56,779 bases of DNA, filler included, from Jimgerdemannia flammicorona (GCA_003990765.1; 3 parts of 3 records of this genome joined end to end with filler, not necessarily neighbours in it); one strand, 5' to 3'; counted from the whole stretch's first letter, positions 18,963 to 51,337 are shown. Notes: a model not told the origin generated them from the sequence alone. A program made the numbers and translations.

Positions 18963-20169
18963 GGTAGTTGGCAAGTCTTGAGGTAATTACTTCTCTTCCT
19001 GTCCAAATGCTAGTGATGACTGGTTCTCCTGTAGTAGCAGAGGTTGGTGTTGTATCAAATGTATCCAGTTTGACTGTGGGTTCTTGTGAGCTGAAAAGTC
19101 ATGTTGATTTTGAAATCTTCCCAGTTGAGCCCCCAAATGTAATGTGTCAGCTCAATGGAGGCAAATTACAAGGTTGGGGGTTGATGTAGTTTGGCTTGAG
19201 CCCCCAGTTACTTTGTTAAAAGCAACAAAATGTTCTTGGTGTTTAGCGGTATAATAGTCAAGATCTGGATACTGTGCGAGCGGTTTCCTTTTTGGGATGG
19301 TTCTCTGGGTGTAGCAGTGATTTGTGTGTAAATGGGCTTCCTTCTTGGGTCAACTGGGAATGGTACAATTTGTGTAGCGTGACGATCTCCCAAAAGTATG
19401 CAATCTCTGGGTGTGACAGTCTGGCAATCTAGCAGTTCTCCTTATGCGATTTCTGCATGACGATCTCTGTGTAGTGCGGCAGTTTCCTTATGTGGGACGT
19501 TCTGATAATTTGGCGAATAACTCGATTTGGCTCACTGGGGATGTAGGGCATGGGTTCTTCTTCTGGAATAAGACTGGCGGCGGGTAACTCAATAACTCAG
19601 GCTCACTGGGAACAACGGGTAACTTGGATAACTCGGGTGACTCAGATAACTCGGATAACTCAGATATCACGGATCGGCTTCAACTGGGAATACTACTTGA
19701 AGGGCGTGAGTTCTTCTGAATCGGGCTCTTCAGGGAATGTAGATAACTCGAAAGTGGCGGACAATGCAGATTTGGCGGGCTTCTTGAAAACGGCGGCTTA
19801 ACTGGGAATTAACTCGGATGGCACGGATTTGGCTTCAACTAGGAATATGGTGGATAACTCAAAAATGACGGGTGACGCGGATAACTCCGATAGCGCGGAT
19901 TCTTCCTGAATCGGCGGGCTTCTAACTGGGAAACAGTGGATAAAACTGGCGGCGTTCTTTGGGAAAGGGTCTCTTGGCAAAGTTACGTCAAAGACTGGCT
20001 TCATTTGTGCGATGAATCACTGCGAAGTTGTGTCAGAAACTGGCTTGAGCAAGGTGGCTTTCTAATGTGGCGGAAAAGGTGGAAATCTTCAGGCTTATCT
20101 GGCAAGCGAACCAAGGGTTTCTCTTCAAAGGCAGCGAAGTTCTTCTTGAACTTAGGCGGCAAATCTTCA

Positions 20170-28074: not shown

Positions 28075-30879
28075 ATTATAACTAAGGAGTTGGGAGGAGT
28101 TAACTTTTATATTATCAGTAAGATATACTGGAGAGATGTCTTATAAGAAGAAGAGGTAGTGCATAGGCTCCAGAATGAGATAATAGCTACTCTGCTGGAG
28201 GAGAAGAAGTATATAGTTGATAGAAAGTAGGAGGCAGAGCTTTTGGAGATTATAAATAAGTGTGTAGTATATCTGTGGGGTCTAAGGAAGATATTGGTAA
28301 AATGGCAGATAGTGTGTAAGAAGTACTGAATATCTATAGAGATAATGGATAGAAAAGACTATTAGGAGATATTAGTGGCTCTGGATGTTTAGCAGAGAGA
28401 GATAATCAAACTTGAGACTGAAAGAAACTTAGATATAGCTGACAATATAGTGAGTATTAAATTGTAGAGTAGACCAATTTACTATATATATTATTCTCTA
28501 TAAATAGTATAACTAGAATATTTTCTCTGAATATTAATAGATTAAGAGAGGCAAGATATTGAAGAAATATTTTCTCTTAGCTATAGAGACTAGATGCTGA
28601 TTTGTTCTTACTATAGGATATAAGATATGATAAGGACTCAGATATATAGAACTGAATAAGGAAATGAGAGAGGGTAGTAGTGTGGAAGAGCAGAGTGAGT
28701 ATTTTAGTGAGAAAAAGAAAGAGAGATATTAGAGATATTAAACACTAGAGGAGTAGAATGATATGGGAGATATAGAGGAGGATAAGTTGGGGTCTAGTAG
28801 TAACTGAGTTATACTATTACTTAGTAGAGAGAGGGGCTCAAGTAGAGTGAATAAGTAGATTGTGAGACTCAGACAGACTGGTGTAGGTAGAAATTTACTA
28901 TCTGGGTGAGAACTTCAATATAGTTTATAATAGTAAGCTGAATAGGACTAATAGTGGGTAGGAGTTGTCTGAAAGGAGCAGAGGAATGAAGAGTTGAGAG
29001 AAAATTGAAAGACTTAGCTCTCTGATAGATACTAACTGACAGGAGTAAAGAGATCACTAGATTTATATATACTAGATTAATGGGCTTGACTCTTAGATTG
29101 ACTGAATCCTAACTGCTAAGTATTGAGAAAGTAATGTCTGAGAATTATTAGAGACTATATAGTATCCTTAGTCTGATTTTTAGGATCTCTTAGGATGTAA
29201 AAGATTTGAAGAAATCTAGACATTGGTATCTGAATACTTCTTTATTGGATGAGCCCTCTTTGTAGAATATCTGAGTAGTGGACATTAGATCTAGAGTTTT
29301 TGAATAGTATATAGCAAGTCTTGCTATTGGAGATAGATAGTATCAGCTGAAGTCTGATACTTAATATTTCTGAAGAGAGGCTAGGAGAGTATAGAGTACT
29401 CAGAAGAGGGACCAGATATAGTAAGTCTTATATTAATTAAAGAGATTGTTGACAGAGTGGGTTGATCTACTAAAGGATGAGAAGATGGTTAATTAGAGGG
29501 TTCAGTATGTCAGATTAGATATAGAGAAACTGTAGAGTTTACTGAAAAGAAAAGAAGATATACAGATGAAAGATATAGTGATCTGGCTATAGTGATAAGG
29601 TTTAGAAGAGAGAGAATAGTCTACAAAGTTTTGTCAAGGCTTCTTTAGATAAAGAGGGTGAGATAGCAGTAAAATGAGATATTGGATAAGTTCAGAGAGC
29701 TGATGATAGAGACTTAGAGTATCTTAGATTAGTTGAGTAGATGTTAGGAGCTATTGTAGACCAAGAAGAAGGATGGGGAGAATATATATACTATTGAGCA
29801 GTATCTGGAGGACTGGTATTCAGATCTGGCTAAGAGTCTGAGTGAGCTTAGGATACTGGTTTGAGGAGAGAAGATTCTTCAAATCTTAGCTATGATAAGT
29901 CTCAAAATAGTACCTAGAGAGGATAGTCTGTTCTGGGATTTCTGGAAAAGAATGGTAAGTAATAGAGTAGTATTAGAGAAGATAATACAGATATATAATG
30001 AAGTTATTGACTCTAGAGAGTAGATTGGGAGACAGTATCTGGGGCTATAACTTTATTATATAAGAATAAAAGGAGAAGAGAGGAGTAGAAGAACTAAAGG
30101 CCAATTATACTTCTGAATATAGATTATAAGCTAGTTATAAAGATTTTAGTAGTAAGGTTATAAGGAGTGACTTAGTAGATACTAAGAGAGGAATAATGGA
30201 ACTTTATTAATAGCTGCTTAATTAGAGATAGAATAGCATAGATCTATAGTATTATTGAAGGAGTGAGAGCCTTTGCAGATAATATAGTAGTTGGACTGAG
30301 CTCTGTAGAGAATATAGTAGAATTGAAGAGAGTAGTAGAATAATATAAGAAGTACTTAGGGGCTAAGCTTAACTGATATAAATATGAGATACTAGTACTA
30401 GAAGGAGGTATAGTGGGAGAGAATCTGATAAGAATGATTGTTCTGATAGAAGAGGCAGTTCACTATCTAGAGATCTACTTCTCAGTATATGGCTCTTTAC
30501 TGCTCAGAGAGTAGTAAGAGTAGCAGCCAATGAAGTGGAAAAATATACTCCTCAGCTGAAGTGACTGATATATCTCTCTGATAGAAAGAGTGATAGTATT
30601 GATATATATTAATTATCTAAGCTATAATATCTGAGTTATTATCTAGATTTTCTGATATAGATAGTGAAAGACTTTTGAAAATAGCCAGATCTTAGATTTA
30701 GACTAAATATTATAGTTAGATTGGATAGAAGATATTGATGTTGCTAGTAAATCAGGAGAGTCTTAGTCTTGTGGACTTTATCAAGTACTTCTACTGCTTG
30801 AAAACATAGTAGCTGAAGAGAGCTAGTGAGCTAAGAGATCATAGTTGGATCTCTCTTATATAGAGAGTATAGAAGATAT

Positions 30880-33800
30880 TATAAGAGGGTTACTTATTAG
30901 AGTAACTGTTATGTAGTTCTGGAAGGGTTTTCTGGAAGTTCTGGATATTCTGGAAGACTGTTTTCTTAAGGTCAAGATCAATTTCATATTGAGTACATCC
31001 TCTATACTTATTGATTTCAAGATTAGATTGATATCTCAATCAAAGTCCTTTTTTGGACTAATTCTGAATGTTCAGAATTTTCCATATTTTAAGAAGTTCA
31101 AGAAACTAAGACCAGCTTAGTTGAATTGACATATCACTGCAGACAATACCCAATTAGGAAATTTCATGATGGGGTTAGGAGTGGGATCTAACAGAGAGCA
31201 GATTTACTTAAGAGTGGTTTGTAGATTATTAAATAGGTTTATTTGCTATTTATGATATTACTATACTAGGAGTAGTTGTGTAAAGGAATATTGTGGAAAT
31301 TGCTCAGGGGTTGTGTTTGGATTGTTCAAGTGTTCAAGTCTGTTCAAGTCTGAGATTCTGAGGTCTGAGAGAGGGGGTATTTATACTAGTGAGGGGTTAT
31401 CTAGACTATGCTGAATATAGATATAGCACTTAGTGCCTTGCTGAGTCAGAATGTAGTCATATAGTACAAGTGTGATCTGACATGTCAAGAGTTCATCTGA
31501 CTGCTGAGTTAGTTTACAGTTACATCATATAAGACTAATCTAACTATACTATAACTGCTAAGCTATCTATAGATTTAGATGCTGTTTGGTTAATCTTTGA
31601 TGATATTACTATTGATAACATCATCTTTGATAAAGTCTGAGCAGTTTTCTGACTTCTGACATCATCAGTTTCAAAGGTGTCATTACTTCTATCTCTTGCA
31701 AAATTAAGACTATCCTTGGTAGTAGTGGTTGTACAAGGATAACAGGTCTTGGTTCTCTTTTTTTTTGAACTGCTGGTGCATTTGTGAGAACTGACCATTC
31801 TTGTCTAGGGCAAGAGCTCCCAATGTTGTGGCTGGGGGTTCAAACCTCTCAGAAATGATATTTTCTATAATCTGAGACAATTTCTAATAGTAATATCTAT
31901 TATATAGATAGGCTTGAGATTGGTTTCAACAATGTTAGCTTTCTTGAGTTCAGATGAAGTATCTGTTATTCTCTAATAGAAGTAATACAAATAGAGCAAA
32001 TAGAGTTATTCAAATGTATTTTACTTCTGCTAAGTAATGAGGTCTTGTATAGTTGTAGTGTATCTTGGTCTTGAGTTGATAAGTGCAGTCCATGAACCTT
32101 TGATGGATAAGATAGGGTTCTTCTTGTCTCAGTTTGATTTTGGTACCTTCAGTTTCTTTTTATAATAGTACAGTATACCAAACTAGTTATAGAGATTCAG
32201 AGTTGGTCTTATGATTGTAGTACTTCTTCTGGTATTCTTATATCTTGGTAATAGTTTCTCATACTTGCTGGCATATTTTGTATAACCAGGTGATCTCTTC
32301 AGTAACTTGTTTTGTAGTCTTGTATGTAGTTTCCAAATTGGTTCTGAGGATGATATGTGATTTTGGTGGCTTGGAGATTGTATACTTACAACTCTCTCCT
32401 TCTTAGCTTTCAATGTCCTTGTCAAGGCCTTCTAATTTAATCTAGTATTGTTGTACCATTTGAATGGTTCTTGTGGCTGTATTTGTTGAGGATTTGTTCA
32501 ACTTTGTATTCTTCTTAGTCATTAATAATGACAGATGCAGGTAGTTCTGTAGTTTGGTTCAGAAATATGTCTCAGACTTTCTGGAGTAGGGGTCTAACAT
32601 GGCTGTCCACTTTGGAAAAGTCTTCTTCAGAGTTCTTGGGTTCTCCTTTAGATGAGCAGATGGAGATGGTAAAGAGAGGGCATTTCTTAGTCAATTTCTT
32701 GAGTTGTAGCTTATTGATGTAAGTGATATTTGGTCCAGAGTCACTAGAGCTGAGTGGGTCCTTTTTACCTTATAGTTTGAAGTTGTGGCATCCTTTCTTG
32801 ATGGTCAGAGAATGGTTTACCTAATCAATCATAGGGTTCTCTTGTTTCAACCATGGGGTTCCAAGAATGATTTCATTATCAGGAAGTGGTATGATCTAGA
32901 GAGTAATATGTACTCAGTAGTCATCAATTCAGAAGGGCAGATTGTGAACTTCCTTGCTAATGACATGGAAGGTTCTATCAGCTGTAGCAACTGCTTGAGT
33001 TTGTTGTACCAGAGATGTCAGGACCTTGAGTCTGTTGGCTATTTCTTCATTGATGAAGTTGCCTGAGGCACCACTGTCTATCATAATCTTGACAGATACT
33101 CAGTTGACAAAAGCTTGAAGTGTAAGTAGTTTGTCTAATCCAATAGTGGTGATTTCAGTTGTAGGAGCTTTTCTTCTATTGGTTCTTCTTTGAGCCAGTT
33201 TATTGACACAAGAAAAGTAATCATCAATCATTTGGGAAGAGTATATTTCAATATTATGAGGGCATTAGCTACTTGGTACATATCCATCTTCAATTTTTTT
33301 ATAGAATTGTTCTTTTTTATTCATAGTAGGTTGGGCTGGGGCCTTATTTGATAAGTCAAATCCTTTAGATCCTCAGATAGTGGGTAGTAGTTCAGGGACT
33401 TCCTTGACTGTCAGGGTTGACTCAATTTTCTCAAATAGGATCTGGATAATACAGAAACCAATGGGGATCTTGAAGAGTGTCCAACTATAGTTTCAGATGA
33501 GGACAATAATTTTGCCTGTGTAATCTTCATCAATGACTCCTCCTTTTACTGAGAGTCCTTTCAATGCTAGGCTACTGTGACAGTATATTCTTCCAATATA
33601 TTCTTCAGAGATTTGGATACTAATTCCTGTATAGACTTACTTGACCTCTCAGTTGGAAACTATAGTTTCTTTAGCTGCATACAGGTCATATCCAGCTGCC
33701 TTTTGACTTTCTTTGCTTAGGGCCTTGGCAGTTTGTCTTAACTTGACAAAGTCTAGTATTCTGGTAGTCAGGTTATTGAGGTGATACAGAGTAGTAATAG

Positions 33801-36800
33801 TTGCTCATATTACTGTTTGGGGTTTTCAGTTGAGGTAGATACTGGCCATGTATTCTGTCTTTTGGCAATAGAAGCATGCTTTGCTTCTTTGAAGTTCATT
33901 TCTTTCTCCTTCAGTAAGTTTCTTGAAGGTACTCAGCTAGGTAGGTTCATGATTTCTGGGTGTCCATGAGGTGGATGTGGAGGGAGCTTGAGATGCTTTG
34001 TGCTTGGGTTCTTCTTTCTTGGTCCAAGTCTTTTTCTTGTTGTTGAATTGTCTTCAGGGCAGAATTAGTCCAGCTGTTAGGATTTGCTTGACCATAGTCT
34101 TGATTCTTACCAGGTATTATTGTTGATAATTGCAATCCACCAGACATCCTTGTTCTCAGATTTTTCTTGTAAGCCATTTAGGTAGTACATTGAATAGATG
34201 ATCTGCTCTTATACTATTTCATACTTTGTCATTGGCAATATATCCTAGGCCAACAGTGTTCAAGAGTGACTCAAGTTTTGTATAGAAGGTTTTGAATTCT
34301 TCCTTACTATGTACATCAAATTTAAGGTTGTGGAGTTTTACTCAAGATTGTGTTCAGATTGTTCAAGTCTGAGTTTTACTCAAGATTTGGCAATTATGGT
34401 TTTGCTGCAGTATTGAGCAATCATGAGTTGTTTCAGTCCAGGGGCTGCAGGATGGACTCCATATCCTGGGGCATTGTTTGTTGTATTTTGGACAACAACT
34501 GCAGATCAGGTATTCTATGTAAGGGGTTTTTCAAGAAGGGTTTGCCACCATTCTTCAGCAGGCCCTCAGAAGAATGTAATAACTTAGCAGACATAGGCTG
34601 TAGTAGTAGTGAAGAGTTGTTCCAGAGTATAGTCTTGATTGTTTGTCAGAAAGTGGTCAGCAACTTACTCATTAGTCCATTGATTGGCTTCAAAGTTGGT
34701 ATCAACTACATTAATGAAGCTTTGAACTTCTTGTGCAGTACTATTGAAGGTAGGTAGGTTCAGATTTTTGATAGGTCAGGTCTGTTCAGCTAAGGCAGTA
34801 ATGGTTGCTATCATTATTGCTACTTGGGCTGTAAGGTCTAGAATCTGTTGGTTTTCCATATTGTTTGCTAAAGATGATTAAACTACTGGTAGTAGTGTTA
34901 CTGGTACTACTTGAGGTACTGGTGCAGAGTGTGAGAGTGTTCTTTGAGTCTGTGTAAGTTACTAGAGTAGTAGTTGTGAGTCTGGAGTAAGGGCTTGATA
35001 AATAGCTATCTGTTGCTGTGTAAGTATATTCTGTCCTGATAGAGGTGTGTCCCATTCAGTAGTATATCTGGGATCAAATTCACTGAAATACTCCTCCTTC
35101 TCTTTGACTTGGTCCCCATATAGTTGGGTTTGCTCAGTGTCAAAGTAGACAGAATTAGTTGTATATCTGATTTCAGATAGACTTAATTCAAAGTCAAGTT
35201 CTGGTTCAGTATTGATTTCAGGTTCAGGTAGAGCCATAGCAGGGCCTGCTTTTGGTTCAGAGTCAGGTTATAGGTAAAGGGTTTCTCTTGCTTCTTCCTT
35301 AAGAATATAGCAGGCCTTGCTATTCTGAAATCAGTAGTATAATACAGTCTTGGTTCTGGTATGGTGAAAGTCAGTAGAGTTGAGCTACTTGGCTATAGAG
35401 GCTTGGGCTTTGTAAGGAACTAAGGTTAGAAATACTGCTACTGGTTATCTTAGGCCACTCAGATTTGTGGAGCTGATAAAACTCTTATTGAGAAGAGTAA
35501 AGAAGACTTCTATAAGACCTTCTTCATCTTGACTTACAGAGTATAGGGCAAGGAGTTCAGTGAATAGAGTTTTGCCTATCTGTTGATTTAATCAGAGTAC
35601 TTCTTTCTTTAAATAAAGTTTGTCCCACTTGTTATAGGTGTAGAGGTCAAATTATCCTTATATGTCAGGTTCAATTCTCTCCAGATTATCAGATGGTTTA
35701 GGATAAATTCTAGTTCAGAGGTTGGGTTTTATACTAACTTGTAGAAATTCTCAGAGGGGTTTGTAGCAGAGTGAGAAAGTGTCTTAAAGTAGAATTGGAT
35801 TATAAACCACTGCTACTAAGTTGTAAGAGGGTTACTTGTTAGGATAACTGTTACATAGTTTTGGAAGGGTTTTTTGGAAGTTCTGGATATTCTGAAAGAC
35901 TGTTTTCTTAAAGTCAAGATCAATTTCATATAGAGTATATCCTCTACACTTATTGATTTCAAGATTGAGTAGATATCTCAACCAAAGTCCTTTTTCAGAC
36001 TAGTTCTGGATGTTCAGGATTTTTCATATTTCAGGAAGTTCAAAAAACTAAGACCAGCTTAGTTAAATTGGCATATCGCTGCAGACAATACCTAATTAGG
36101 AAATTTCATGGTAGGGTTAGGAGTGAGACCTAACAGAGAGTAGATTTACTTAAGAGTAGTTTATAGGTTATTAAATAGGTTTATTTGCTATTTATAATAT
36201 TACTATACTAGAAGTAGTTGTGTAAAGGGATATTGTGGAAATTGCTCAGAGGTTGTATTCAGATTGTTCAAGTATTTAAGTCTGTTCAAGTCTGAGATTC
36301 TGAGGTCTGAAGGAGGGGGTATTTATACTAGTGAGGGGCTATCTGGACTATACTGAATATAGATATAGCACTTAGTATCTTACTGAGTCAAAATGCAGTC
36401 ATATAGTATAAGTGTGATCTGATATATCAAGAGTTCATCTGACTGCTGAGTCAGTTCACAGTCACATTATATAAGGCTAATCTAACTATACTATAACTGC
36501 TAAGCTATCTATAGATTTAGATGCTATCTGGTTAGTCTTTGATAATATCACTATTGATGATATCATCTCTGGCAAAGTCTGAGCAGTTTTCTGACTTCTG
36601 ACATCATCAGTTTCAAAGATGTTGTCACTTCTATCTCTTATAAGATTAAGGCTATCCTTGGTGGTGGTAGTTGTACAAGGATAACAGGTCTTAGTTCTCT
36701 TTTTTTTTTGACTGCTGGTATATTTGTGAGGACTGACCATCCTTGTCTAGGACAAGGGCTCTCAATGTTGCAGCTAGGGGTTTGAACCTCTTAGAAATGA

Positions 36801-37336
36801 TATTTTCTATAATTTAAGACAATTTCTAGTAGTAATATCTGTCATATGGATGAGCTTGAGATTAGTTTCAACAATGTTGGCTTTCTTGAGTTCAGATGAA
36901 GTATCTATCATTCTCCAATAGAGGTGATACAGATAGAGTAAATAGAGTTGTTCAAATGTATTTTACTTCTACTAAGTAATGAGGTCTTGTATAGTTGCAG
37001 TACATATATCTTGGTCTTGAGTTGATAAGTGTAGTTCATGAACCTTTGATGGATGAAATAGAGTTCTTCTTGTCTTGGTTTGATTTTGGTATCTTTGGTT
37101 TCTTTTTGTAATAGTACAGTATACCAAACTAGTTATAGAGGTTTAGAGTTGGTCTTATGGTTGTAGTACTTCTTCTGGTATTATTATATCTTAGCAGTAG
37201 TTTCTTATACTTGCTGGTATATTTTGTATAATCAGGTGATCTCTTCAGTAACTTGTTTTGTAATCTTACATGTAGTTTCCAAATTGGTTCTGAGGATGAC
37301 ATGCAATTTTGATGGCTTGGAGGTTGTGTGCTTATA
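30880..37336 (-). mobile_element. Non-autonomous Ty3/Gypsy chromovirus: LTR-gag(CCHC)-dUTPase-protease-[RT/RH/IN deleted]-chromodomain-LTR
   Basis: LTRs 30880-32390 and 35822-37336; TSD GATAT (30875-30879, 37337-37341). PBS-like TAGTAGCAGTGGTTTATAATCC (iMet-like, 35818-35797) and PPT at ~32392-32403. Zn knuckle CFYCQKTEYMASIY ~33836-33878, protease IMIDSGASGNFI ~33048-33087, chromodomain-like VIIND*EEYKVEQIL ~32488-32532. Confidence 0.9.
33353..33760 (-). pseudogene. Retrotransposon-borne trimeric dUTPase (decayed)
   Basis: All five motifs appear in order: AAGYDLYA, GRIYCHSSLA, GGVIDEDYTG, CIIQILF, I*GSKGFDLS. Confidence 0.88.
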
Positions 37337-40627: not shown

Positions 40628-40709
<82 letters not shown>

Positions 40710-42191
40710 ATATAATTATTAATTAAACATATTAATTTATAATATAAATACTAATTAATTATTATAATAGTTAAAATAAAACTTAATATTTAACTAGAAC
40801 TCAAACCTGTTTAGTTAGAATCTTAAATATTTTAGTAGTTGGGTTTAAGGTATGCAGTTATTCTACTTGATATTCTTGTATGAACTACTGCTCACACAAT
40901 CTTGTCTGGTACTTTCAATAAATTGAAGTTATACTCGACATTCTCGGCTTCCAGGTAGGCTTGACAACCTCATTTCCGTCTACCGCATGGCACTGTAGTT
41001 TTCCGCGTAGACGCGGGTGACTAACACTCATACCAAGTGACCTCACGTCTCAAATCCCGCTTCGTCTCGCCGACCTTGAAGCATTCAGTCCCAGACCACG
41101 CTAGCCAAAAGGAAAAAAAAAAACGCCTTCGATTAGAGCCATACCATGATATGTCTGTCATCAAAGGCCTTCAGTTTTGATTTCGTGTGGAGGTTGCTGT
41201 AGCAATGATTACGTTAGCAAAGCTTTTTATCTGAGGAACATGCGGCAACTCGGGTGAAGTTGTGCTGGTGAGCGCGAGAATTCCGAGCGGAGATGGCTAG
41301 TGGAAACGGTGATGGGTCAACTGTGTTAAGGCAATAAACTGGTATTCTTGACCCAGAACTATTCGCGAGAGCAATTTTCAGATGGTACATCAAATTCAAG
41401 TTCAAAGCAATACCCTCTGACCTCACATCGCGCCTCGGATGCGAACCATTCTGTTTTGCGGACGCCTCGCGTATTATATGGACAATGTACACCTCCTCTC
41501 ATTAACAACGGAGGAATCAAGAAATACTTGGAGAATCTCGGCGCGACGTCAAGAACATACGTTTCTCTACATGGTTTGCACAAGATTCTTAAGGAGACGG
41601 CCCCACACACTACCACGGGGTTCAACAGACCCTAGCTATCGCAGTGCGTAAGATAGCGTCGCCTGCAATTTGGCCTCGCAGGCGATTTTTTTTTTTTTTT
41701 TTCCCGACTCGCTTTTGAGAGGGGTCTTTGATTCGCAGTATTCGCCTTCAACAAACCAACTGGGACAGTCGGTGCTTCTATCAGGGACCTCCCTCGTGTT
41801 CAATGCTGGATCACTATTGTCGAAAATCCATCGCACCCAGGATCAGGTCGGATGAGCCAATCGATTGACTGCAGGCAGCGGAAGGCAGCGCTTTTCTCCC
41901 TTCAGAGGGTTTTGTTATTGACCTAGCATTCCATGGACGAGCATGACCATTGTTCCCTTAATCGAGCCTCTGTTGTTGGTGGTATGCCGTTTTCTTCAAC
42001 TATATGTAATGATTGTCCAAACATACCTCGGTCAAAAAAATCATTGAAGTCATCCCAAGCATAAAGTTGATATCATATAGAGATAGGCATTTTTAACATA
42101 GGAATACAATGAGTAAATCATGTAGCAGCTTTACGTATATCATCATTTACATCCCTTCCCGGCGTTCTCCTCACTATCTCCGCCAACATTC

Positions 42192-42782
42192 TTATAGGCA
42201 GGCCCAGCTGCCGACTAGCAAGACAGCTTTCACGATGGTTGCGCCGGAGGTGGCACCGATATTCTGTAATATTGCGCATATGCTCCCGGCGGTGACGGAG
42301 CCTCCGTAACTGGCCATGATCATCGCGGCCAGCGTACCCTTCACGATGCCGTCTATTCCAAATCCAATGGCATGGACAACGGAAATAAACGCTTGGGCAA
42401 CGACGGAAATAAACGCTCGGGCAACGACGGGTATGACGAACCAAACCACGAAAATAAAAACGATGATTCCAGCCACGACTGCGGCAACATAGCGAGCATA
42501 ATTTTGTACATCTTCGTTGGCGACGAATTGCTTCGCCGGTTCCAAGACGTATTGGTCTACCGTTTCCGAGTTGGCGTATTGCTTCACCGGTTCCAAGACG
42601 TATTTGTCTACCGTTTCCGAATTGGCGTATTGCTGTACCGTTTCGGCGAGTTGTTGTGCTGTTTCCATGTTGACATATTGTTCTACTGCTTCCTTGTTGG
42701 AGTCGGCGTATTGCTTCACCGTTTCGGCGAATTGCTGTACCGTTTCCATGTTGGCGAGGTTTGCAAAATCCACGGGTGCCAT
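42192..42782 (-). CDS. IFI27/ISG12 (Ifi-6-16 family)-like membrane protein with N-terminal repeats (copy A), 196 aa
   Basis: AIGFGIDGIVKGTLAAMIMASYGGSVTAGSICAILQNIGA matches the ISG12 motif GFxxxGIxxxSxAAxMMS...GGxVxxGSxxAxLQSxGA. It is preceded by a TM segment and ETVQQYANS-type repeats. Confidence 0.85.
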   Translation of the reverse strand: MAPVDFANLANMETVQQFAETVKQYADSNKEAVEQYVNMETAQQLAETVQQYANSETVDKYVLEPVKQYANSETVDQYVLEPAKQFVANEDVQNYARYVAAVVAGIIVFIFVVWFVIPVVARAFISVVAQAFISVVHAIGFGIDGIVKGTLAAMIMASYGGSVTAGSICAILQNIGATSGATIVKAVLLVGSWACL

Positions 42783-43865
42783 GTCGACGATTAGCTTGAG
42801 TGTTGACGATTAATTTGATCAGAAGAGCTTGAGTTTGAGTGTCTTGGAAGCGGAGCTTTTGACAATGAAAGACTCACAACAGAAAGCTGTGAGGATGTAG
42901 GTATGTAGGTATCATCACTCATCACTGACCCTCTTTTGGGATAAGAATTGTATAAATGGATCGAATAAATGAAAAATATTACAAAAATTTGAACTTAAAA
43001 CATTCCTCCGGTTAGAAGCCATGTCCGTCATCAGAGATCTTTGGATTTCATTGTTGAGGTTGCCGCGGCAATACTTATTGTAGCAAAGTTTTTGACCAGA
43101 AGAACGTGGGCGACGTTGTGTGTGTTGGTGGAGCCCCATGTAATGGCAACAAATTGGTATTCTTGGCCCAGAAGCTATTCTTATACCGTGATCCGTCTCT
43201 AGCCGTGCCATTATTATTTATTTATTTATTTATTGTTGTTGTTGTTGGCAGAAACCGCTACCCATTGATATCCGAGTAAACTTTATGCACCATCGACATC
43301 GGAGCAGTGTTGAATTTCATAATCTACCATGCTGATTTACTATGTCATGGCAGAGTCGAGCAACCTCAAATGATAATGACAACTCCGACGACTGTTCCTC
43401 CAACAAAAACAACTGGAACAGTGGGTGCCGATCTCCAGGATCAAGCTGGAGATCGGACGACAATCAATCGCGTCAATCGATTGATCGCAGGCAATGCTTT
43501 TCTCCCCTCAGATAGTTTGAAATGTTTGCCCGACATCCCATGAATGAGTAGAACCATTGCTCCCTTAGTCGAACATATACTGTCGGTGGTATGCCGTTTT
43601 TCTAAAATTTATTTTTTATTCATGATAATTGCCCAAGTCAAAAGAACATTAAGGACATCATACATAAAGTCTGATATGGAAGGACTACAACGTCCAACAG
43701 TAAGTAAATCATGTGGTAGCTTTGTGTCCATAATATAACATATTTCCTTCCCGGCGTTTACAACTAGTCTGAGGTCATAATCAGTTTGAGCTCACCTGGT
43801 TTGAACTCCCGACCCCGGGTAACCTTTTGTAGGTAAAACCTCTTGGGGATGGTTTCAACAGGAGC

Positions 43866-44896
43866 CTAAAAGCGGGGTTTCATGACAGTATGGACCGCCA
43901 ACCCGTAATGACCGTTGGCGAGCTTGAGCTCACCTAGTCTATGCTCACCTAGTCTGACGCCAAGTGCTGCGACACCCACCCCGAGAGCTGCGCCGACGTA
44001 TGGGCCAAGAGCTCCGACTGAGGAAGTGGCACCAATGCTCTGTAACACGGCGCAGGCGCTCCCGGCGGGGACGAAACCTGCGTGGCTGGACATGATGTTC
44101 GCGGCGCACGTATTCGCCACGATGCCGCTTTGACCGAATCCCAGGGCATTGACGACAACGGGTGCGACGATAGGAATCACGATAACACCAATCACGGCTC
44201 CGGCGACGTAGGGGGCATACTTTTGTACATCTTCGTTGGCGGCGAATTGCTTCACCGCTTCCATATTGTTCTCACGATATCCATATCGGCGATTTGCTTT
44301 ACCATTTTCATATTGGCGATTTGCTTGAATGCTTCTCCGTTGGCGATTTGCTTTATCACTTCCATATCGGTGATTTGCTTGAATGCCTCACCATTGGCGA
44401 TTTGCTTTACTACTTCCATGTCGGCGATTTGCTTGAATGCCTCCCCGTTGGCGATTTGCTTGAACGCGATTTGTTTCAATGCCTCCATGTTGGCGATTTT
44501 TTTGAACGCCTCCCCGTTGGCGATTTGCTTTACCGCTTCCCCGCTGGTGATTTGTTTGAATGCCTCCATGTTGGCGATTCGCTTGAACGCCTCCCCGTTG
44601 GCGATTTGCTTTACTGCTTCCCCGCTGGTGATTTGCTTAAATGCCTCCATGTTGGCAATCTGCCTGAACGCCTCCCCGTTGACGACTTGCTTTACCGCTT
44701 CCCCGCTGATTATTTGCTTGAATGCCTCCATGTTGGCAATCTGCTTTACCACGTCTCCATTGGCGAGTTGCTTTATCGAGTCCATTTTGGCGATTTGCTT
44801 TATCGGGTCCATGTTGGCGAGTTGCTTCATTGCTTCCAAATTGGAGATTTGCTGCATCGGCTGCATGTTGGTGAATTGCTTGAATGCCTCCTCCAT
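43866..44896 (-). pseudogene. ISG12-like copy B: ~22 nonad repeats plus ISG12 domain, separated by a 1-bp frameshift near 44270
   Basis: Start context CATTCCAAAATGGAG is shared with copies C, D and F. The repeat ORF ends MDIVRTIWKR* while the ISG12 ORF 43866..44264 (LGFGQSGIVANTCAANIMSSHAGFVPAGSACAVLQSIGA) is in another frame. Copy D has one extra base here (GTGAAGGACAAC vs GTGAGAACAAT). Confidence 0.8.
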
Positions 44897-45164
44897 TTTG
44901 GAATGGCGGTATGTGTATGCAGTGCCTGTCAAGAGGGTTAGCCGAGTAGTATATGCAAACTATCATGTGAAACCGATTGTGGCGCTGCGGTCTTATTAAT
45001 TAATATATTGTGGGAATATCTATAATTTTTGAGTTTGAACACAATATATAAATAAAACAATCGATTGTAATTTACCTCACGCTTTCTGCGCCACTTGTCA
45101 CATCATTCCGTGTTTGACTTGCAGTCACCACCACATGCACACACCTCTATAGAAACATTCCAAA

Positions 45165-45656
45165 ATGGAGGCATTCAAGAAACTCCCCAACATGGACGCG
45201 ATAAAGCAAATCGCCAACATGGAAGCCGTAAAGCAAATCGCCAAAATGGACCCAATAAAGCAAATCGCCAACTCGGAGCCAATAAAGCAAATTGCCAACA
45301 TGGAAGTGGTAAAGCAAATCGCCAACTCGGAGCCGATAAAGCAAATCGCCGACAACGAAACTGTACAGAAGCTCGCTCCCTATGTCGCCGGAGCCGCCGT
45401 TGGTGCTATCGTACTTCCCATTGTCGCACCCGCCGTCGTCAATGCCATCGGTTTTGGAAAAGTCGGTATCGCGTCGAAAACATGCGGCGCGGCCATCATG
45501 TCGAGCTATGGAGGCTCCGTCCCCGTCGGGAGCACCTGCGCCGTGCTACAGAGCATCGGTGCCACTTCCTCAGTCGGAGCTGCTGGCGTAGCCGCCGGCG
45601 CAGCTCTCGGGGCGGGTGCCGTAGCAGTTCACCGCTGGACAGTTTCCAAACTTTAA
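45165..45656 (+). CDS. ISG12-like copy C with 7 nonad repeats, 163 aa, intact
   Basis: (MEAVKQIAN)-like x7, then YVAGAAVGAIVLPIVAP and AIGFGKVGIASKTCGAAIMSSYGGSVPVGSTCAVLQSIGA. Confidence 0.88.
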   Translation: MEAFKKLPNMDAIKQIANMEAVKQIAKMDPIKQIANSEPIKQIANMEVVKQIANSEPIKQIADNETVQKLAPYVAGAAVGAIVLPIVAPAVVNAIGFGKVGIASKTCGAAIMSSYGGSVPVGSTCAVLQSIGATSSVGAAGVAAGAALGAGAVAVHRWTVSKL

Positions 45657-46080
45657 GATGTGGCGGAATTTCAATGATTTCCTTTGATGTTATCATGCAT
45701 AAATAAATTGTGACAATGGAGGGAACAATGGTCCTGTTCGTTCATGTGATGTTTGAACTATAACAAGGGTGTCTGAAGAGAAGAAAGCACTACTTTCCGC
45801 TGCCTGCAGTCAATCGATTTGGGTGATGCATTATCGTCCGACCCCTAGCTCCGCACTTCGTAGCCTGTTTCTAGGTGTTGGGTGAATGCGCCAAGAGTGT
45901 CTAGCATTGAGGTTGTGCATGCACGGGGGGCGTATCTGATAGGGGCGCCGACCGTTCCAGTTGTGTTTTGTTGGAGAGGGAGCACTTGTCAAATACTGCG
46001 AATCACAGACCACCTATAAAGTCAGGTCGGAAAAAATCGCCTGCGAGGCCTAATTTGCGATAGGTTCGGTTGAAACCCGT

Positions 46081-47234
46081 TGAAGGGTGACGAGCGAACA
46101 TTATAGTATAGTGAAAACCACACACAAAATACCTAGCATAGTTACCCAGTATGTGCATCATCCAATTTGTATAAATAGCTGACATACCATTTTAGGGGAA
46201 TGCCCATCCCCTGAGAGAACACCTATTGTAATGGTTCTAGGTTTTTTAAGAGGAAGTAACTAAATCTGGAATATTCTAGTGGACCTAAAGTAGTTCAAAA
46301 AGATATTTATAGGTTCAGGTGATTTGAGAAAAGTATTCTGAGCTTTATTCAAGTGAACAGAAGAGCTTTTATATAGAATCTGTAAGAAGGATCCAGAAGA
46401 ATCTTAGAAATAAAAAGAAAAACCAAAAAAGTAGTTTTCACAAAGATGACTAATATAGTTTTATAATGTTTCAAGAGATTCTATAACTAGTTAAGATAAG
46501 ATATATAGTACTGAGAAAAATAAGAATATTTTAATAAAGTCTTGATACTAAAAAAGAGTTTTAAGTACTTAGAAGATATTGGAATATTGTAGAATATTTA
46601 AGAAAAGATAAGAAAAGACTAAAGAAAAGATACAAAAATATACTATGACTACAATATAACTAAGATAATATTATATCTATCTTCTGAGAGAACATCTGTT
46701 CTCTGAAGAAATATCTGTTCTCTTAGAATAATATCTATCATAATTAGCCCTACTATATATTTTTTAATTATCTAGATAACAACCAGATAGTAATTATACT
46801 TATATAAAATATTTCAGAGATGTGAGTAAATAAATCTCAGTCTAAGAATTCTAATTTTAAAATAAAAGCAAAAAAACAAATCTGCTTATAATATACTTCA
46901 AGAGATATATCTACCAAAAGTCACTTGATCAAGAAAAGAATTGTAATACTTAGGAGAAATATTTGCTCAAGAGTCACTGTTAAGGAGATTGTAAAATTCT
47001 TTCAAATATAATTATATAAAACTTCAGTCCACTTACTGATATTAGAAAGAATTTGCTGCCAAGTTCTAAGAAAGAACTTTACCCAGTTTAAGATGTTTTG
47101 GTCTGCTTATCAGAATAAGCTAGAAGATTTATTGAGACAAACAACTGAATATTTTGTTACTTTTTGACAAAGTAACTGGGGGCTCAAGCCAATCTACATT
47201 ACTTCCCCACTTGTAATTGAGCTGATATGTTACA
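46081..47234 (+). mobile_element. Degenerate LTR fragment inserted in the ISG12 cluster (related to 18173/19138)
   Basis: Right end GTAACTGGGGGCTCAAGCCAATCTACA...ATGTTACA is the reverse complement of the 19138 LTR terminus. AT-rich and CpG-poor. Left boundary approximate; no clean TSD. Confidence 0.6.
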
Positions 47235-48077
47235 GTAGTGAGTGGAGAAATGAATGGGGCCATCTCCTTGCAACTTCTATTTATGCCTTCATGCGGACAG
47301 TGTCTATTCCTGGTGTGGATCGAGATTCTTCAAGTGGTTCCTGATTCCCTTTGAGTCTGTATACCAGTTTGGTTCATATCCGAGGCGTGATGGGAGGCCA
47401 GAAGGGCATTAATGTAATATTGCTCGACGCATTCAAGTTCCAAATTGAATAGAATTGTGCAACTGGAATCGTTACTATTGGGGATTTTAACATTAAGGAG
47501 CATGTTTTTCTCGGTCTAAGAAGATTAAATCGAATGACGTCATTATTCGTTGTCGTCATCGTAGTCGCTGACTCGATGGTGACGTCAGGCATGATCCGTC
47601 TCATTTATTATTGTTATTATTATTATTGGCAGAAACCGCCATCCATTGCAATACGAGTAAGCTTATGGACGTTGGAAAAGTGGTTGAATTTCATGATCTG
47701 TCATGTTGATTTGCTGTGTCATGTTCAATCTCGATGGTAATGAATACAGTTTGTGTCATAGCTCAGGTTGTACTGAATACAGTTTGTGTGAGCAATCTCA
47801 GGTTGTACTGAATACAGTTCCACAACTCCGACGGTTGTTCCCCTCCAACAAAAGCATCGTCAATCGATTGAACGCAGGCAACGGAAGGCAGTGCTTTTCT
47901 CCCTGAAATCCCCTTGTTGTTAGCCTAGCATCCCATGAATGAACATAACTGTTGTTCTCTTAGCTGAACCTCTACTGTCGGGAGTAAACCATTTTTCTTC
48001 GATTTATTTTATTCACGATACTTTTCAAGTCAAACATCAAGGAAAAAATCACGTAGCAGCTTTATGTACATCGGCAT

Positions 48078-48813
48078 CTACATTTCCTTCCCGAGATTCT
48101 CGCCTATTCCGAGCTCACCTAATCTCACGCCGAGTGCTGCGACACCCACCCCGAGAGCTGCGCCGACGTATTGGCCAAGAGCTCAGACTGAGGAAGTGGC
48201 ACCGACGCTCTGTAACACGGCGCATGCGCTCCCGGCGGGGACGAAACCTGCGTGATGGCCGCGCCGCGCCACGATGCCGCCTTTTCCGAATCCCAGGGCA
48301 TTGACGACGACGGGTGCGACGATAGGAATCACGATAGCACCAACCACGGCTCCGGCGACGTAAGGGGTAGCCTTCTGTACATCTTCGTTGGCAGTGAATT
48401 GTTTCACCGCTTCCATGTTGTCCTTCACGATATCCATGTGAGCGATTTGCTTGAATGCCTCCCTGTTGGAGATTTGCTTGAATACCTCCCCCTTGGCGAT
48501 TTACTTTACCACTTCCATATCGGCGATTTACTTGAATGCCTCCCCGTTGGCGATTTGCTTTGCTTGAACACCTCCCCGTTTGGCGATTTGGTTTACCACT
48601 TCCGTGTCAGCGATTTTCTTGAATGCCTCTCCGTTTGCGATTTGCTTGAATGCCTCCGTGTCGATAATTTGCTTTACCGCTTCCATGACGGCGAGTTGCT
48701 GGAATGCTTCTCTGTTGGAGATTTGCTTGAATACCTCTATGTTTTACCGCTTCCCCGTTAGCGAGTTGCTTTATCGGCTCCATGTTGGTGAATTTCTTGA
48801 AAAATCCCTCCAT
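48078..48813 (-). pseudogene. ISG12-like copy D (paralogue of B), frameshifted
   Basis: Nonad repeats with frameshifts, a deletion inside the ISG12 motif (GGIVARRGHHAGFVPAGSACAVLQSVGA), and a premature TGA at 48185-48183. Confidence 0.8.
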
Positions 48814-48968
48814 TTTGGAATGTTTCTATGGTGGTGTGTGAAGTCGAGGCATTAAAAAGTAACTTGAGAGTATTATAACAAATGAGGCGAAGTTTATTAA
48901 AAAGTACCTTCTTTTTGAATCATGTGAAAACGATTCCATGACGTCACGTTTTCGTGCCTCCTTTTTTA

Positions 48969-49130
48969 TCAAGCTTAATCGTCAACTTTCAAGCTTAGAA
49001 CGTCAACACTCAAGCTTAATCGTCAACACTCAAGCTTAATACGTCAACACTCAAGCTTAATCGTCAACACTCAAGCTTAATACGTCAACACTCAAACTTA
49101 ATCGCCAGCACTCAAGCTTAATCCGTCAAC
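48969..49130 (+). repeat. Tandem minisatellite, 8 x 20-21 bp, abutting the ATG of copy E
   Basis: Unit TCAAGCTTAAT(A)CGTCAACAC with no spacers. Confidence 0.9.
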
Positions 49131-49364
49131 ATGGCATCCGTGGATTTGGCAATCCAAGTCGCCAACATGGTTTGGTGCGTCATACCCGTCGTTGCCCAAG
49201 TGTTTATTTCCGTGGTTAGTTTCGTTGTCCATGCCATTGGATTTGGAGTAGGCGGCATCGTGAAGGGTTCGTGTGCCGCGTTGATCATGGCCTATTACGG
49301 AGGTTACGTCGCCGTCGGGAGCATATGCGCAATATTACAGCATATCGGTGCCACCTGGGCTTAA
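49131..49364 (+). CDS. ISG12-like copy E, minimal 77-aa form without N-terminal repeats
   Basis: AIGFGVGGIVKGSCAALIMAYYGGYVAVGSICAILQHIGA; close paralogue of copy A within the inverted duplication. Confidence 0.75.
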   Translation: MASVDLAIQVANMVWCVIPVVAQVFISVVSFVVHAIGFGVGGIVKGSCAALIMAYYGGYVAVGSICAILQHIGATWA

Positions 49365-50633
49365 AAATGTTGGTGGGAATGAAATGTAAATGATGATATA
49401 CACAAAACTGCTATATGATTTACTCATTGTATTCCTGTTAAAAATGCTATCTTATATGATATCAATTTTAATGCTTGGGATGACTTCAATGATCATTTTG
49501 ACCATGGCATGTTTGGACAATTATTATATTATATAGTTGAAAAAAAAAACGGCATACCACCAACAGCAGAGGCTCGATTAAGGGAACAATGGTCCTGCTC
49601 GTCCATGGAATGCTAGGTCAATAGCAAAACCCTCTAAAGGGAGAAAAGCACCACCTTCCGCTGCATGCAGTCAATCGTTTGGCGTAATCCATTGTCATCC
49701 GACCTGATCCTGGGTGTTGAATACTTGCGTGGATTTTCGATAATAGTGATCCAGCATTGAGGTTGTGCATGCACGAGGGAGGCCCCTGATAGAGGCACCG
49801 ACTGTCCCAGTTGGTTTGTTGGAGGAGAAGGTTTGGCGAATACTGCGAATCAAAGACCCCTCTCAAAAGCGAGTCGGGGAAAAAAAAAAAATCGCCTGCG
49901 AGGCCGAATTGCAGGCGATGCTATCTTACGCATTACGATAGCTAGGTTCTGTCGAACCCCGCAGCAGTGTGTGGGGCCGTCTCCTTAAGAATCTTGTCTA
50001 TTGTCATGTATACCTTCATGCGGACCGTGTCGAGAAACGTATGTTCGTTACGACGCATCGAGATTCTCCAAGCGTTTCTTAATTCTTCTGTTGTTATTAT
50101 ATATTGTCCATATAATACGCAAGGCGTCCGTAAAAACAGTTTGGTTCGTACCCGAGGCGCGATGTGAAGCCAGAGGGCACTCGTATTTGATGTACCATCT
50201 GAAGATTGCTCTCGTGAATAATCCCGGGCCAAGAATACTAATTAGTTTATGGCCTTAACACAGTTGACCAACCACCGTCTCCACCAGCCATCTCCGCTCT
50301 GAATTTTCGCACTCACCAGCAAAATTTCACCCGAGTTGCCGCATGTTCCTCAGGTCAAACGTAATCATTGCTACAGAAACAACGAAATCAAAACTGAATG
50401 CCTCCAATGACGGCATGGCTCTGACCTTCTTTTTTTTTTTTTTTCCTTTTGGCTGGACATCTCCGCGAGGGTCCACGACGGCATGCTTCAAGGTCGGCGA
50501 AATGAAGAGAGATCCGAGACGTTTGTCCCATCCCGAATTGACGATTGAGGTCAACTTGGCAAGGCGACCAACTGCATGCCGCCGCTTAAGCCGGTGAATG
50601 GGAATTTTTTATGTTAGAGTGAGGTATTGAGGT

Positions 50634-50892
50634 ATGCCCTCCCCGTTGGCGATTTGCTTGCTTGAATGTCTCCTCGTTGACGATTTGCTTGAATGCCTCC
50701 GTGTTGGTAATTTGCTTCACCACCTCCATGTCGGCGAGTTGCTGGAATGCTTCTCCGTTGGAGATTTGCTTGAATGCCTCCGTGTTTGCAATCTGCTTTA
50801 CCGCTTCCCCGTTAGCGAGTTGCTCTATCGGTTTATGTAACGATTTGCTTTACGGCTTCCATTTTGGTGAATTGCTTGAAACCCCGCTCCAT
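50634..50892 (-). pseudogene. Copy F: truncated N-terminal nonad-repeat fragment lacking the ISG12 domain
   Basis: CATTCCAAAATGGAGCGGGGTTTCAAGCAATTCACC start followed by AAGCAAATCGCCAAC-type repeats with frameshifts; upstream DNA matches that of copy D. Confidence 0.7.
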
Positions 50893-51254
50893 TTTGGAAT
50901 GGTTTCTATGGCAGTGTGTTCAAGCCAGATAATATTTGAGGTCGAGGCGATTAAAAAGAGACTTGGGAGTATTATAACATTATTAAATTCGAATCTCCAA
51001 TAAATTCACTTCTCATGGGCTCCATGTATTTATGGATAACAGAAAAACTATGCATATCGTTGTACTGGCTTAATGATCAGACTGCACAATCCAGACATCT
51101 CACCACTAATTATTTAAAATTATTACACTCTGGAAAACTACCATGCAAACCTTTATAACAAAGATAACAATAATTGAACATCGAAAACAAAATGACAAAT
51201 AGTATCGCTACAAAATAGAAGAAACAACTAAGCATTGTTAAACAGTGTACGCCT

Positions 51255-51288
<34 letters not shown>

Positions 51289-51302
51289 AAAAAAAATTAA
51301 CC

Positions 51303-51337
<35 letters not shown>

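Follow-up and report, generated by a model that had tools for sequence, protein, structure and literature searches.

A cluster of intact and damaged Ifi-6-16 family genes with a nonapeptide repeat head in the fungus Jimgerdemannia flammicorona

Jimgerdemannia flammicorona is an early-diverging mycorrhizal fungus of the Endogonales (Mucoromycota), and a 56.8-kb stretch of its DNA, here called the window, carries six paralogous loci between positions 41045 and 50892, with Tra1 and a P450 as flanking genes. Over 501 aa this Tra1 is 100% identical to the J. flammicorona protein, which identifies the host. The six loci had been recognized in an initial annotation as related copies of an IFI27/ISG12-like gene, and all of them are real and lie at the positions that had been assigned. 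The cluster is composed of the following features, in window coordinates:

41045-42152, no strand: 3' flank of copy A, duplicated along with A; its inverted partner (49384-50522) lies beside E
42192-42782, minus strand: copy A, an intact gene of 196 aa with a diverged repeat head and an Ifi-6-16 domain
43866-44896, minus strand: copy B, a repeat ORF and a domain ORF split by one frameshift
44897-45164, no strand: spacer of 268 bp between the divergent genes B and C
45165-45656, plus strand: copy C, an intact gene of 163 aa with seven nonapeptide units and an Ifi-6-16 domain
about 48099-48813, minus strand: copy D, a pseudogene and direct duplicate of B
48969-49131, plus strand: minisatellite of a 20-bp unit (41-bp doublet) in about eight copies, directly 5' of the ATG of E, detected by TRF
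49131-49364, plus strand: copy E, an open ORF of 77 codons and inverted duplicate of A
about 50638-50892, minus strand: copy F, a 5' remnant of a gene of the B/D type, without the domain

Copies A, C and E had been described as intact, which holds for A and C. Copy A has a head of about 88 aa of the N-x-E-T-V-x-Q-Y-A type, a 24-bp internal duplication within TM1 and a leader with about two copies of the motif that forms the 20-bp minisatellite of E; it is present in public protein sets as P0003. The exact sequence of copy C is absent from a collection of 15 billion proteins and from public gene sets. Copy E is identical to the public protein P0071, and its alignment with A shows that the whole repeat head is gone, with the eightfold 20-bp minisatellite in its place, and that 48 bp of the C-terminal helix are missing. 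Because E is truncated at both ends and the A/E pair has a dN/dS of 0.91, it should be regarded as a truncated derivative, for which 'intact' is too strong a term.

The damage reported for the other three copies was found as described. In copy B, which has 23 nonapeptide units (44267-44869), a single 1-nt deletion near 44264, located by comparison with D, leaves a repeat ORF of 214 codons and a domain ORF of 132 codons (43866-44264), the latter with a complete Ifi-6-16 domain and an ATG of its own. This frameshift could be an assembly error. Rescue of the reading frame by a cryptic intron (GTGAGA ... AAAAG, 56 nt) was judged unlikely because A, C and D have conserved coding sequence in the segment that would be skipped. 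Reading of copy D in three frames showed its repeats to be interrupted by at least one frameshift and two in-frame stops and its domain to have suffered a deletion; a third in-frame stop follows ...GATSSV. Copy F retains the start codon and about nine units, broken by one stop and one frameshift. An alignment of the upstream regions gave a start context, CATTCCAAA-ATG, that is common to B, C, D and F, and the 268-bp spacer between B and C is presumably a shared bidirectional promoter.

The proposed IFI27/ISG12-like identity was confirmed with the Pfam profile PF06140 (gathering score 29.1 bits), which was passed by five of the six ORFs scanned: A (42.7 bits, E=5.3e-11), the domain ORF of B (49.1 bits, E=5.4e-13), C (46.1 bits, E=4.6e-12), the remaining domain piece of D (still 32.5 bits) and E (44.7 bits, profile positions 4-63 of 84). 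The repeat ORF of B gave no match to this profile, and copy F, having no domain, was left out of the scan. A profile of fungal homologues plus the window copies matched human IFI27L1 (PDB 2LOQ chain A) with E=6e-18 and 68.5 bits over chain residues 20-108; copy C alone reached E=0.015. Taking C as the reference, five positions do not vary in any of 52 sequences (G96, F97, G101, Q129 and G132) and 12 more are at least 90% conserved; the five window copies agree completely in 24 columns, the conserved core being GFGxxGI...SYGGxVxxGSxCAxLQSIGA. At the level of sequence, homology of the copies to animal ISG12/IFI6/IFI27 is solid.

Hydrophobic segments according to Kyte-Doolittle are found at residues 94-143 of A, 69-102 and 137-155 of C, and 15-50 and 83-103 of the domain ORF of B. 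The AF2 model of C (mean pLDDT 74.1) has helices at 65-95, 107-114, 124-135 and 140-161, and GxxxGxxxG motifs are present in the last, C-terminal helix of B and C. The copies thus fit a predicted small hydrophobic multi-helix membrane protein. Structure searches with the model of C gave no matches with Foldseek against the PDB, and VIA-align wide returned unrelated helical chains with a best Z of 4.5, 2LOQ not being among the matches listed.

Both duplications that had been proposed were recovered as aligned blocks, the inverted one between A and E (41045-42448 vs 50522-49168) and the direct one between B and D (43929-44655 vs 48099-48788), as were the head-to-head pairs B/C and D/E, the latter with a spacer of 317 bp. 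The flank shared by A and E is 78.6% identical over 1194 columns (blastn), the inverted arms are 89-93% identical, and the region upstream of D matches that of F (48615-48880 vs 50658-50979). The split between A-type and B-type copies has a dS of about 0.9, as compared to about 0.4 for the inverted pair B/C, about 0.24 for A/E and 0.20 for B/D, for which dN/dS is 0.56. An AU test, from which 12 long-branch rows and two public duplicates (of A and E) had been dropped, did not reject a tree that unites the five copies with a domain in one clade (p=0.515, lnL difference 0.26); a quick free tree based on few columns did not place A/E next to B/C/D. On these alignments, a single clade of window copies is compatible with the data.

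The description of the locus as a birth-and-death cluster is borne out, and calling it rapidly evolving is justified as far as copy turnover, repeat-number change and relaxed constraint are concerned, but not in the sense of a dN/dS above 1, which no pair reached: pairwise NG86 values across the copies range from 0.33 to 0.91 over 70-106 codons. The domains of A, B and C gave 0.33-0.59, imprecise values on 74-106 codons, and the intact pair of A and C gave 0.39. Taken as pairwise estimates, the domain values point to relaxed constraint and give no sign of positive selection. Only two of the six copies have escaped damage or truncation, and function may be in the process of being lost at the whole locus.

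The head of these proteins is a tandem array of the nonapeptide N-[M/G]-E-A-Φ-K-Q-I-A, and the N-terminus is indeed variable, its length ranging widely from 0 to 23 units per copy. The head of A is a diverged form of the unit found in B and C, and a juxtamembrane sequence NEDVQ(K/N)YA(P/R)YV is common to A, B and D; its counterpart in C is NETVQKLAPYV. A nonapeptide repeat head on an Ifi-6-16 domain is new here; none of the other Ifi-6-16 proteins found carries it. N-terminal extensions in the family are very diverse, and reach at least 40 aa in 70 of 101 members. A search of the ESM Atlas with the head of B did not reach the lead threshold (best score 0.77), and the repeat-region matches from a representative search were rejected as homologues, being unrelated proteins with 9-residue repeats of their own.

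Among 27 units from B and C, the entropy at the three codon positions is 0.76, 0.37 and 0.86, and pN/pS is 0.50. Variation is concentrated at unit positions 1, 2, 4 and 5, whereas K-Q-I is nearly fixed; at position 5 the second codon base is always T, with the first and third varying (F/V/I/M/L). Because of this codon-position conservation, the possibility that the head repeats are a non-coding minisatellite was rejected, and the nucleotide pattern indicates that they are coding, with codon-level signs of protein constraint. One helix of 6-8 residues per unit appeared in both AF2 runs, at a pLDDT of 70-89 for the head of C and an unusable 39.5 for the head of B modelled alone, and the packing of the units is of low confidence, with a pTM of 0.39. 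The helical hydrophobic moment is 0.40 in 9-residue windows vs 0.30 in shuffled sequences, and over 18 residues it cancels (0.07 vs 0.21 shuffled).

The 16-41 kb block beside the cluster had been called a graveyard of transposable elements. In agreement with that term, the block has a high AT content, few ORFs and LTR-like direct repeats. It has 215 ORFs of at least 45 aa, however, and the 100 longest gave no match to a transposon protein family in a Pfam scan. A dispersed repeat of 73 bp at 47147-47218 is found twice more, at 18.2 and 19.2 kb. Long homopolymer tracts, 12 in number, are distributed throughout the window, and for this reason the poly(A) tracts at 40632-40707 and 51257-51335 were dismissed as element boundaries. 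The RIP-type picture known from ascomycetes is inapplicable since the host is a Mucoromycota fungus.

The locus is probably best explained as a lineage-specific Ifi-6-16 cluster of J. flammicorona that was shaped by local duplication and decay and that encodes repeat-headed membrane proteins with a role under stress. The ancestral gene would already have possessed a short repeat head beside the first membrane helix and would have given rise to the A and B types (dS about 0.9). Local duplications then produced B/C (inverted), B/D (direct) and A/E (inverted); D, E and F decayed afterwards and B was nicked, leaving A and C as the clearly intact remainder. In the protein, a soluble nonapeptide head would precede a hydrophobic helix, which is followed by the conserved core and, at the C-terminus, a helix rich in Gly and Ala; the head units would correspond to short amphipathic helices, and unequal recombination within the 27/81-bp arrays would alter the number of units. 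Animal family members sit in endomembranes (ER or mitochondria), and the fungal proteins are probably located there as well, with the head probably in the cytosol, where it would set spacing, self-association or partner binding. They probably modulate membrane behaviour under stress, and a part in a dsRNA- or virus-type response can be envisaged, as for the 6-16-family gene NCU04490 of Neurospora crassa, which was reportedly found to be dsRNA-inducible by Choudhary et al. in 2007, according to text citing that work. What is said here of localisation, topology and a stress or virus response is inferred by analogy with these animal and Neurospora relatives.

A plainer view is that the copies are housekeeping-type small membrane proteins (e.g. 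of the ER or mitochondria) without a role in defence, left as neutral duplication debris in a repeat-rich, recombination-prone region and carrying a head that is a tolerated low-complexity extension. The damage or truncation in four of six copies, the A/E dN/dS of 0.91, the neighbouring AT-rich, LTR-like repeat DNA with its many homopolymer tracts, and the diversity of N-terminal extensions in the family would all suit this view. It nevertheless seems unlikely to us, as the frame of the head and its unit pattern have been kept in both subfamilies across a dS of about 0.9, the second codon position of the units is conserved, and two intact copies persist with a dN/dS of 0.39.

The initial annotation had compared the cluster with fungal allorecognition or defence loci. 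An immune, allorecognition or cell-death locus under diversifying selection, in which the head would be the hypervariable module for recognition and the Ifi-6-16 domain the executioner that damages membranes, would be in line with the copy turnover and the heads of 0 to 23 units, the GxxxGxxxG motifs that B and C have in their last helix, and the recurrence of unrelated repeat heads on Mucoromycota homologues. Relatives also point in this direction: family members of animals, shrimp among them, have a part in antiviral defence or apoptosis, IFI6-16 of shrimp being antiviral according to PMC9144789, and NCU04490 is described as dsRNA-inducible and up-regulated on virus infection in PMC7648066. 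However, dN/dS never exceeds 1 in any pair, the nearly fixed K-Q-I and the pN/pS of 0.50 look like constraint and not like diversification, and Pfam scans of the six copy ORFs, 11 flanking ORFs and sets of 20 and 100 ORFs revealed no HET, NACHT/NB-ARC, HeLo/HELL or comparable domain. We therefore consider such a locus quite improbable, and an immune role of the cluster is a matter of analogy only. More doubtful still is a bolder version, according to which an ancient cell-autonomous defence module is shared with animal ISGs, Mucoromycota have repeatedly added fast-changing repeat heads to it, with mycoviruses or endobacteria as the targets against which these heads adjust recognition or oligomerisation, and the Jimgerdemannia cluster is an arms-race locus.

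It is hardly credible that a mobile element carried the copies as cargo or spread them, and that they are not host genes duplicated in place, even with the approximately 1.1-kb flank duplicated with A/E, the dispersed 73-bp repeat and the LTR-like repeats nearby, since the gene units match nothing else in the window (none outside 41-51 kb), no transposase, RT or integrase is found among 100 ORFs (the longest of 215) or in a set of 20, only A and E were found in public protein sets, and the copies are oriented and arranged in blocks as expected of segmental duplication, both inverted and direct.

With local duplication and decay of repeat-headed membrane protein genes as the preferred reading, what has been obtained is the description of a gene family, not the demonstration of an immune system. 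The locus is a natural series in which the same membrane domain occurs behind 0, 7, about 9 or 23 head units, with decayed copies in addition, and in combination with the dsRNA-induced Neurospora member it offers a tractable way to probe what the domain does in membranes. It also allows one to ask whether the family was linked to a response of the antiviral type before animals arose.

In vertebrates, the ISG12/IFI6 family has a prominent place in antiviral biology, although its biochemical activity is poorly understood, and IFI27, IFI27L1 and IFI27L2 also occur in local clusters there. To our knowledge, fungi have no interferon signalling, and members of the Ifi-6-16 family outside animals are almost unstudied. 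The animal proteins have a domain homologous to that of the window copies, with a GFGxxGI...GGxVxxGSxxAxLQSxGA core, and are likewise small, although sequence identity between copy C and 2LOQ is low and the animal proteins, of about 100-130 aa, lack a nonapeptide head, unlike the Jimgerdemannia copies. The statement that fungal homologues are functionally uncharacterised needs qualification in view of the induction of NCU04490 by dsRNA and virus that is described in PMC7648066, the only functional hint for fungal members found in our literature search. This gene belongs to the same named family and is likened to the window copies by family name, not by sequence; it differs in being an ascomycete gene, for which the relevant passages of PMC7648066 report no cluster or repeat head. 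Closest in architecture are three proteins of other Mucoromycota, from Ambispora gerdemannii (CAG8519644.1), Entomortierella parvispora (GJJ74200.1) and Acaulospora morrowiae (CAG8464083.1), which are annotated only as hypothetical or with bare CDS identifiers and in which a tandem-repeat head precedes the Ifi-6-16 domain, as it does here. Their repeats have periods of 17, 19 and 5 residues, are unrelated in sequence, and in none consist of the 9-residue N-M-E-A-Φ-K-Q-I-A unit. Judged from these sequences, unrelated repeat heads recur on Ifi-6-16 homologues of Mucoromycota, and a repeat head on an Ifi-6-16 anchor is thereby documented as a recurring, previously unrecognised architecture in this group.

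The six related loci (A to F) that the initial annotation placed at 41045–50892 were all found there in ORF calls and three-frame readings, and its identification of the cluster as IFI27/ISG12-like was right. In a Pfam scan, five of six submitted ORFs matched Ifi-6-16 (PF06140) above the cut-off of 29.1 bits: those of copies A (42.7 bits), C (46.1 bits) and E (44.7 bits), for which this check had been suggested, as well as the domain ORF of copy B (49.1 bits) and the ORF of copy D (32.5 bits). The sixth, the repeat ORF of copy B, gave no real Pfam match. A profile made from C, A, the B domain ORF and 49 database relatives matched 2LOQ, the NMR-solved human IFI27L1, over chain residues 20–108 (E=6e-18); copy C as a single query reached E=0.015. 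Because of the PF06140 matches and the profile match, homology to the animal ISG12/IFI6/IFI27 family is secure.

The following positions apply to the copies with long reading frames:

42192–42782, minus strand: copy A, intact, 196 aa
45165–45656, plus strand: copy C, intact, 163 aa
44896 to 43866, minus strand: copy B, 23 nonapeptide units, then a 1-nt deletion near 44264

The open ORFs of A and C bear out their earlier description as intact, and the single frameshift ascribed to B is the 1-nt deletion, seen relative to D. It splits the copy into a head ORF of 214 codons and a domain ORF of 132 codons that has an ATG of its own. Either of these may still be expressed, and the frameshift itself might come from an error in the assembly. 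Copy D is a pseudogene and copy F a fragment, as had been stated: in three-frame readings the D array contains at least one frameshift and two stops, its domain has an internal deletion and the frame stops after GATSSV, while F retains only a start codon and about nine units, broken by one stop and one frameshift. Copy E, also described as intact, is not. Although its ORF of 77 codons is open, the copy lacks the entire head and 48 bp of the last helix when aligned to A at the DNA level. Directly upstream of its ATG, a 20-bp motif (41-bp doublet), present about eight times at 48969–49131, replaces the lost coding repeats, and the leader of A (42783–42830) holds about two copies of the same motif. 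Since dN/dS between A and E is 0.91, E appears to be a truncated gene in decay. The exact sequences of A and E occur in public protein sets (our handles P0003 and P0071); that of C was absent from the public protein sets searched.

Ahead of the domain lies a head of nine-residue units, encoded in B, C, D and F by 27-bp arrays that show a higher order of 54 and 81 bp, and in A by a 24/27/51-bp array (TRF). The 27 units of B and C have the consensus N-[M/G]-E-A-Φ-K-Q-I-A, with K, Q and I nearly invariant. Their entropy is 0.76, 0.37 and 0.86 at codon positions 1, 2 and 3, the second codon base at unit position 5 is always T while the first and third vary, and pN/pS among units is 0.50. An accidentally open minisatellite was rejected on these grounds, and the same codon-position pattern and pN/pS indicate that the head is a translated, constrained peptide. 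The head unit of A, N-x-E-T-V-x-Q-Y-A, is a diverged version of the B/C nonapeptide, and the juxtamembrane segment NEDVQ(K/N)YA(P/R)YV common to A, B and D (NETVQKLAPYV in C) resembles a degenerate unit. The head is therefore older than the A/B split.

AF2 models place one helix of 6–8 residues in each unit, with pLDDT 70–89 over the C head (pTM of the C model 0.39); the B head, modelled by itself, had very low confidence. Windows of 9 residues have a high helical hydrophobic moment (0.40 versus 0.30 in shuffles), which cancels across 18 residues (0.07 versus 0.21), and the spectrum of the whole array peaks at 80 degrees per residue. Because of these values, a chain of short amphipathic helices fits better than a single long amphipathic helix or a canonical coiled coil.

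Self-comparison of the DNA recovered the inverted A/E and direct B/D duplications that had been claimed, as well as an inverted B/C pair:

41045–42448 versus 50522–49168, inverted: A/E block pair, taking in about 1.1 kb of 3' flank
43929–44655 versus 48099–48788, direct: B/D block pair

The proposed head-to-head pairs were likewise seen, B/C with a spacer of 268 bp and D/E with one of 317 bp. Short 3' segments are common to A, B and D, and others to C and E. For the Ifi-6-16 domain (70–106 codons per pair), the Nei-Gojobori method gave these values:

B/D: dS 0.20, dN/dS 0.56
A/E: dS 0.24, dN/dS 0.91
B/C: dS 0.40, dN/dS 0.59
A/C: dS 0.91, dN/dS 0.39
A/B: dS 0.90, dN/dS 0.33

Because of these dS values, the cluster consists of two old subtypes, A/E and B/C/D/F, with younger local duplications following. 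The 5' leaders also differ between the subtypes. Constraint on the domain is relaxed, with dN/dS above neutrality in no pair. In a quick tree of 92 domain rows and 95 columns, where most forks stayed unresolved, A/E and B/C/D did not group together. An AU test, from which 12 long-branch rows and two public duplicates were left out, did not reject the five copies as one clade (p=0.515, lnL difference 0.26). The gene units had no match elsewhere in the 56.8-kb window. On a soil-metagenome contig (L002, 3728–4591), two genes of the family stand in tandem and point the same way, so the window is not the only place where this family has duplicated locally.

The surroundings contain the following features:

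2801–15553, plus strand: multi-exon Tra1/TRRAP gene (Tra1_central, Tra1_ring, FAT and PI3_PI4_kinase pieces)
20170–20917: third, partial copy of the LTR-like repeat
30879–32388 versus 35821–37334: LTR-like direct repeats of 1.5 kb, 89.5% identity
53394–54965, minus strand: cytochrome P450 gene pieces (PF00067, E=2.6e-27), right of the cluster

The Tra1 product matches that of J. flammicorona at 100% identity across 501 aa (next matches 85%, then Umbelopsis 84%), which indicates that the host belongs to the Endogonales (Mucoromycota) and is not an ascomycete. The block at 16–41 kb is AT-rich (GC 0.24–0.39), has few ORFs and shows a strong skew of G over C, reaching +0.54 at 24–31 kb. Pfam scans of 20 ORFs, and of the 100 longest among 215 ORFs, found no transposon protein family. 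A 73-bp dispersed repeat (84–85% identity), which may be a MITE or TE fragment, occurs between C and D (47147–47218) and in the AT-rich block (18200–18270 and 19164–19235). The whole window holds 12 homopolymer tracts of at least 15 nt (longest 43 nt), and paired poly(A) runs flank the cluster at 40632–40707 and 51257–51335.

Regarding function, literature searches on the family in fungi yielded only a mention of Neurospora crassa NCU04490 and one listing in a secretome table. This 6-16 family gene is reported to be dsRNA-inducible and up-regulated by virus (PMC7648066), and a shrimp IFI6-16 is reported to be antiviral (PMC9144789). Because of these two reports and the family homology, we infer that the window proteins are probably small endomembrane proteins that take part in a membrane response to stress or of antiviral type, with the head probably on the cytosolic side. 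The suggested likeness to fungal allorecognition loci is not supported: Pfam scans of the copies and flanking ORFs gave no HET, NACHT or HeLo-type family, and the pairwise estimates (dN/dS 0.33–0.91, five domain pairs) detected no positive selection. An immune or cell-death role of the cluster is a putative one, drawn by analogy.

Searching 1.84 billion representatives with C (HMMER) gave 245 matches at E≤1e-3, of which 8 reached ≤1e-10 and none ≤1e-30; the top one was A itself. Matches to the head belong to unrelated proteins that have 9-residue repeats of their own, and were rejected as homologues. Domain matches have about 50% identity, and those looked up include proteins of Mortierella, Linnemannia, Powellomyces, Paraglomus, Ambispora and Puccinia; the named ones are annotated as 'hypothetical'. 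A profile run against 5.8 billion clusters returned 42 proteins, A included, with the next best at 83 bits. Among 101 fetched proteins with core motifs, 70 have an N-terminal extension of at least 40 aa, and six of the extended proteins are repeat-rich (periods of 17, 19, 19, 5 and 29, plus A itself); a period of 9 occurs in none of them. Relatives are also encoded at eight metagenome loci, where none of the nine motif-bearing ORFs read has the nonapeptide. Because it was found in neither set, the nonapeptide head appears unique to the Jimgerdemannia lineage. An unrelated ENA protein of 350 aa (P0009) has about 12 tandem L-D-A-L-K-Q-L-D-D nonapeptides and later a C-terminal hydrophobic segment; its x-x-x-Φ-K-Q-Φ-x-x unit is convergent, and there is no homology in the domain. 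The architecture of a repeat head plus an Ifi-6-16 anchor recurs in Mucoromycota: the relatives in Ambispora gerdemannii, Entomortierella parvispora and Acaulospora morrowiae carry a repeat head with periods other than 9.
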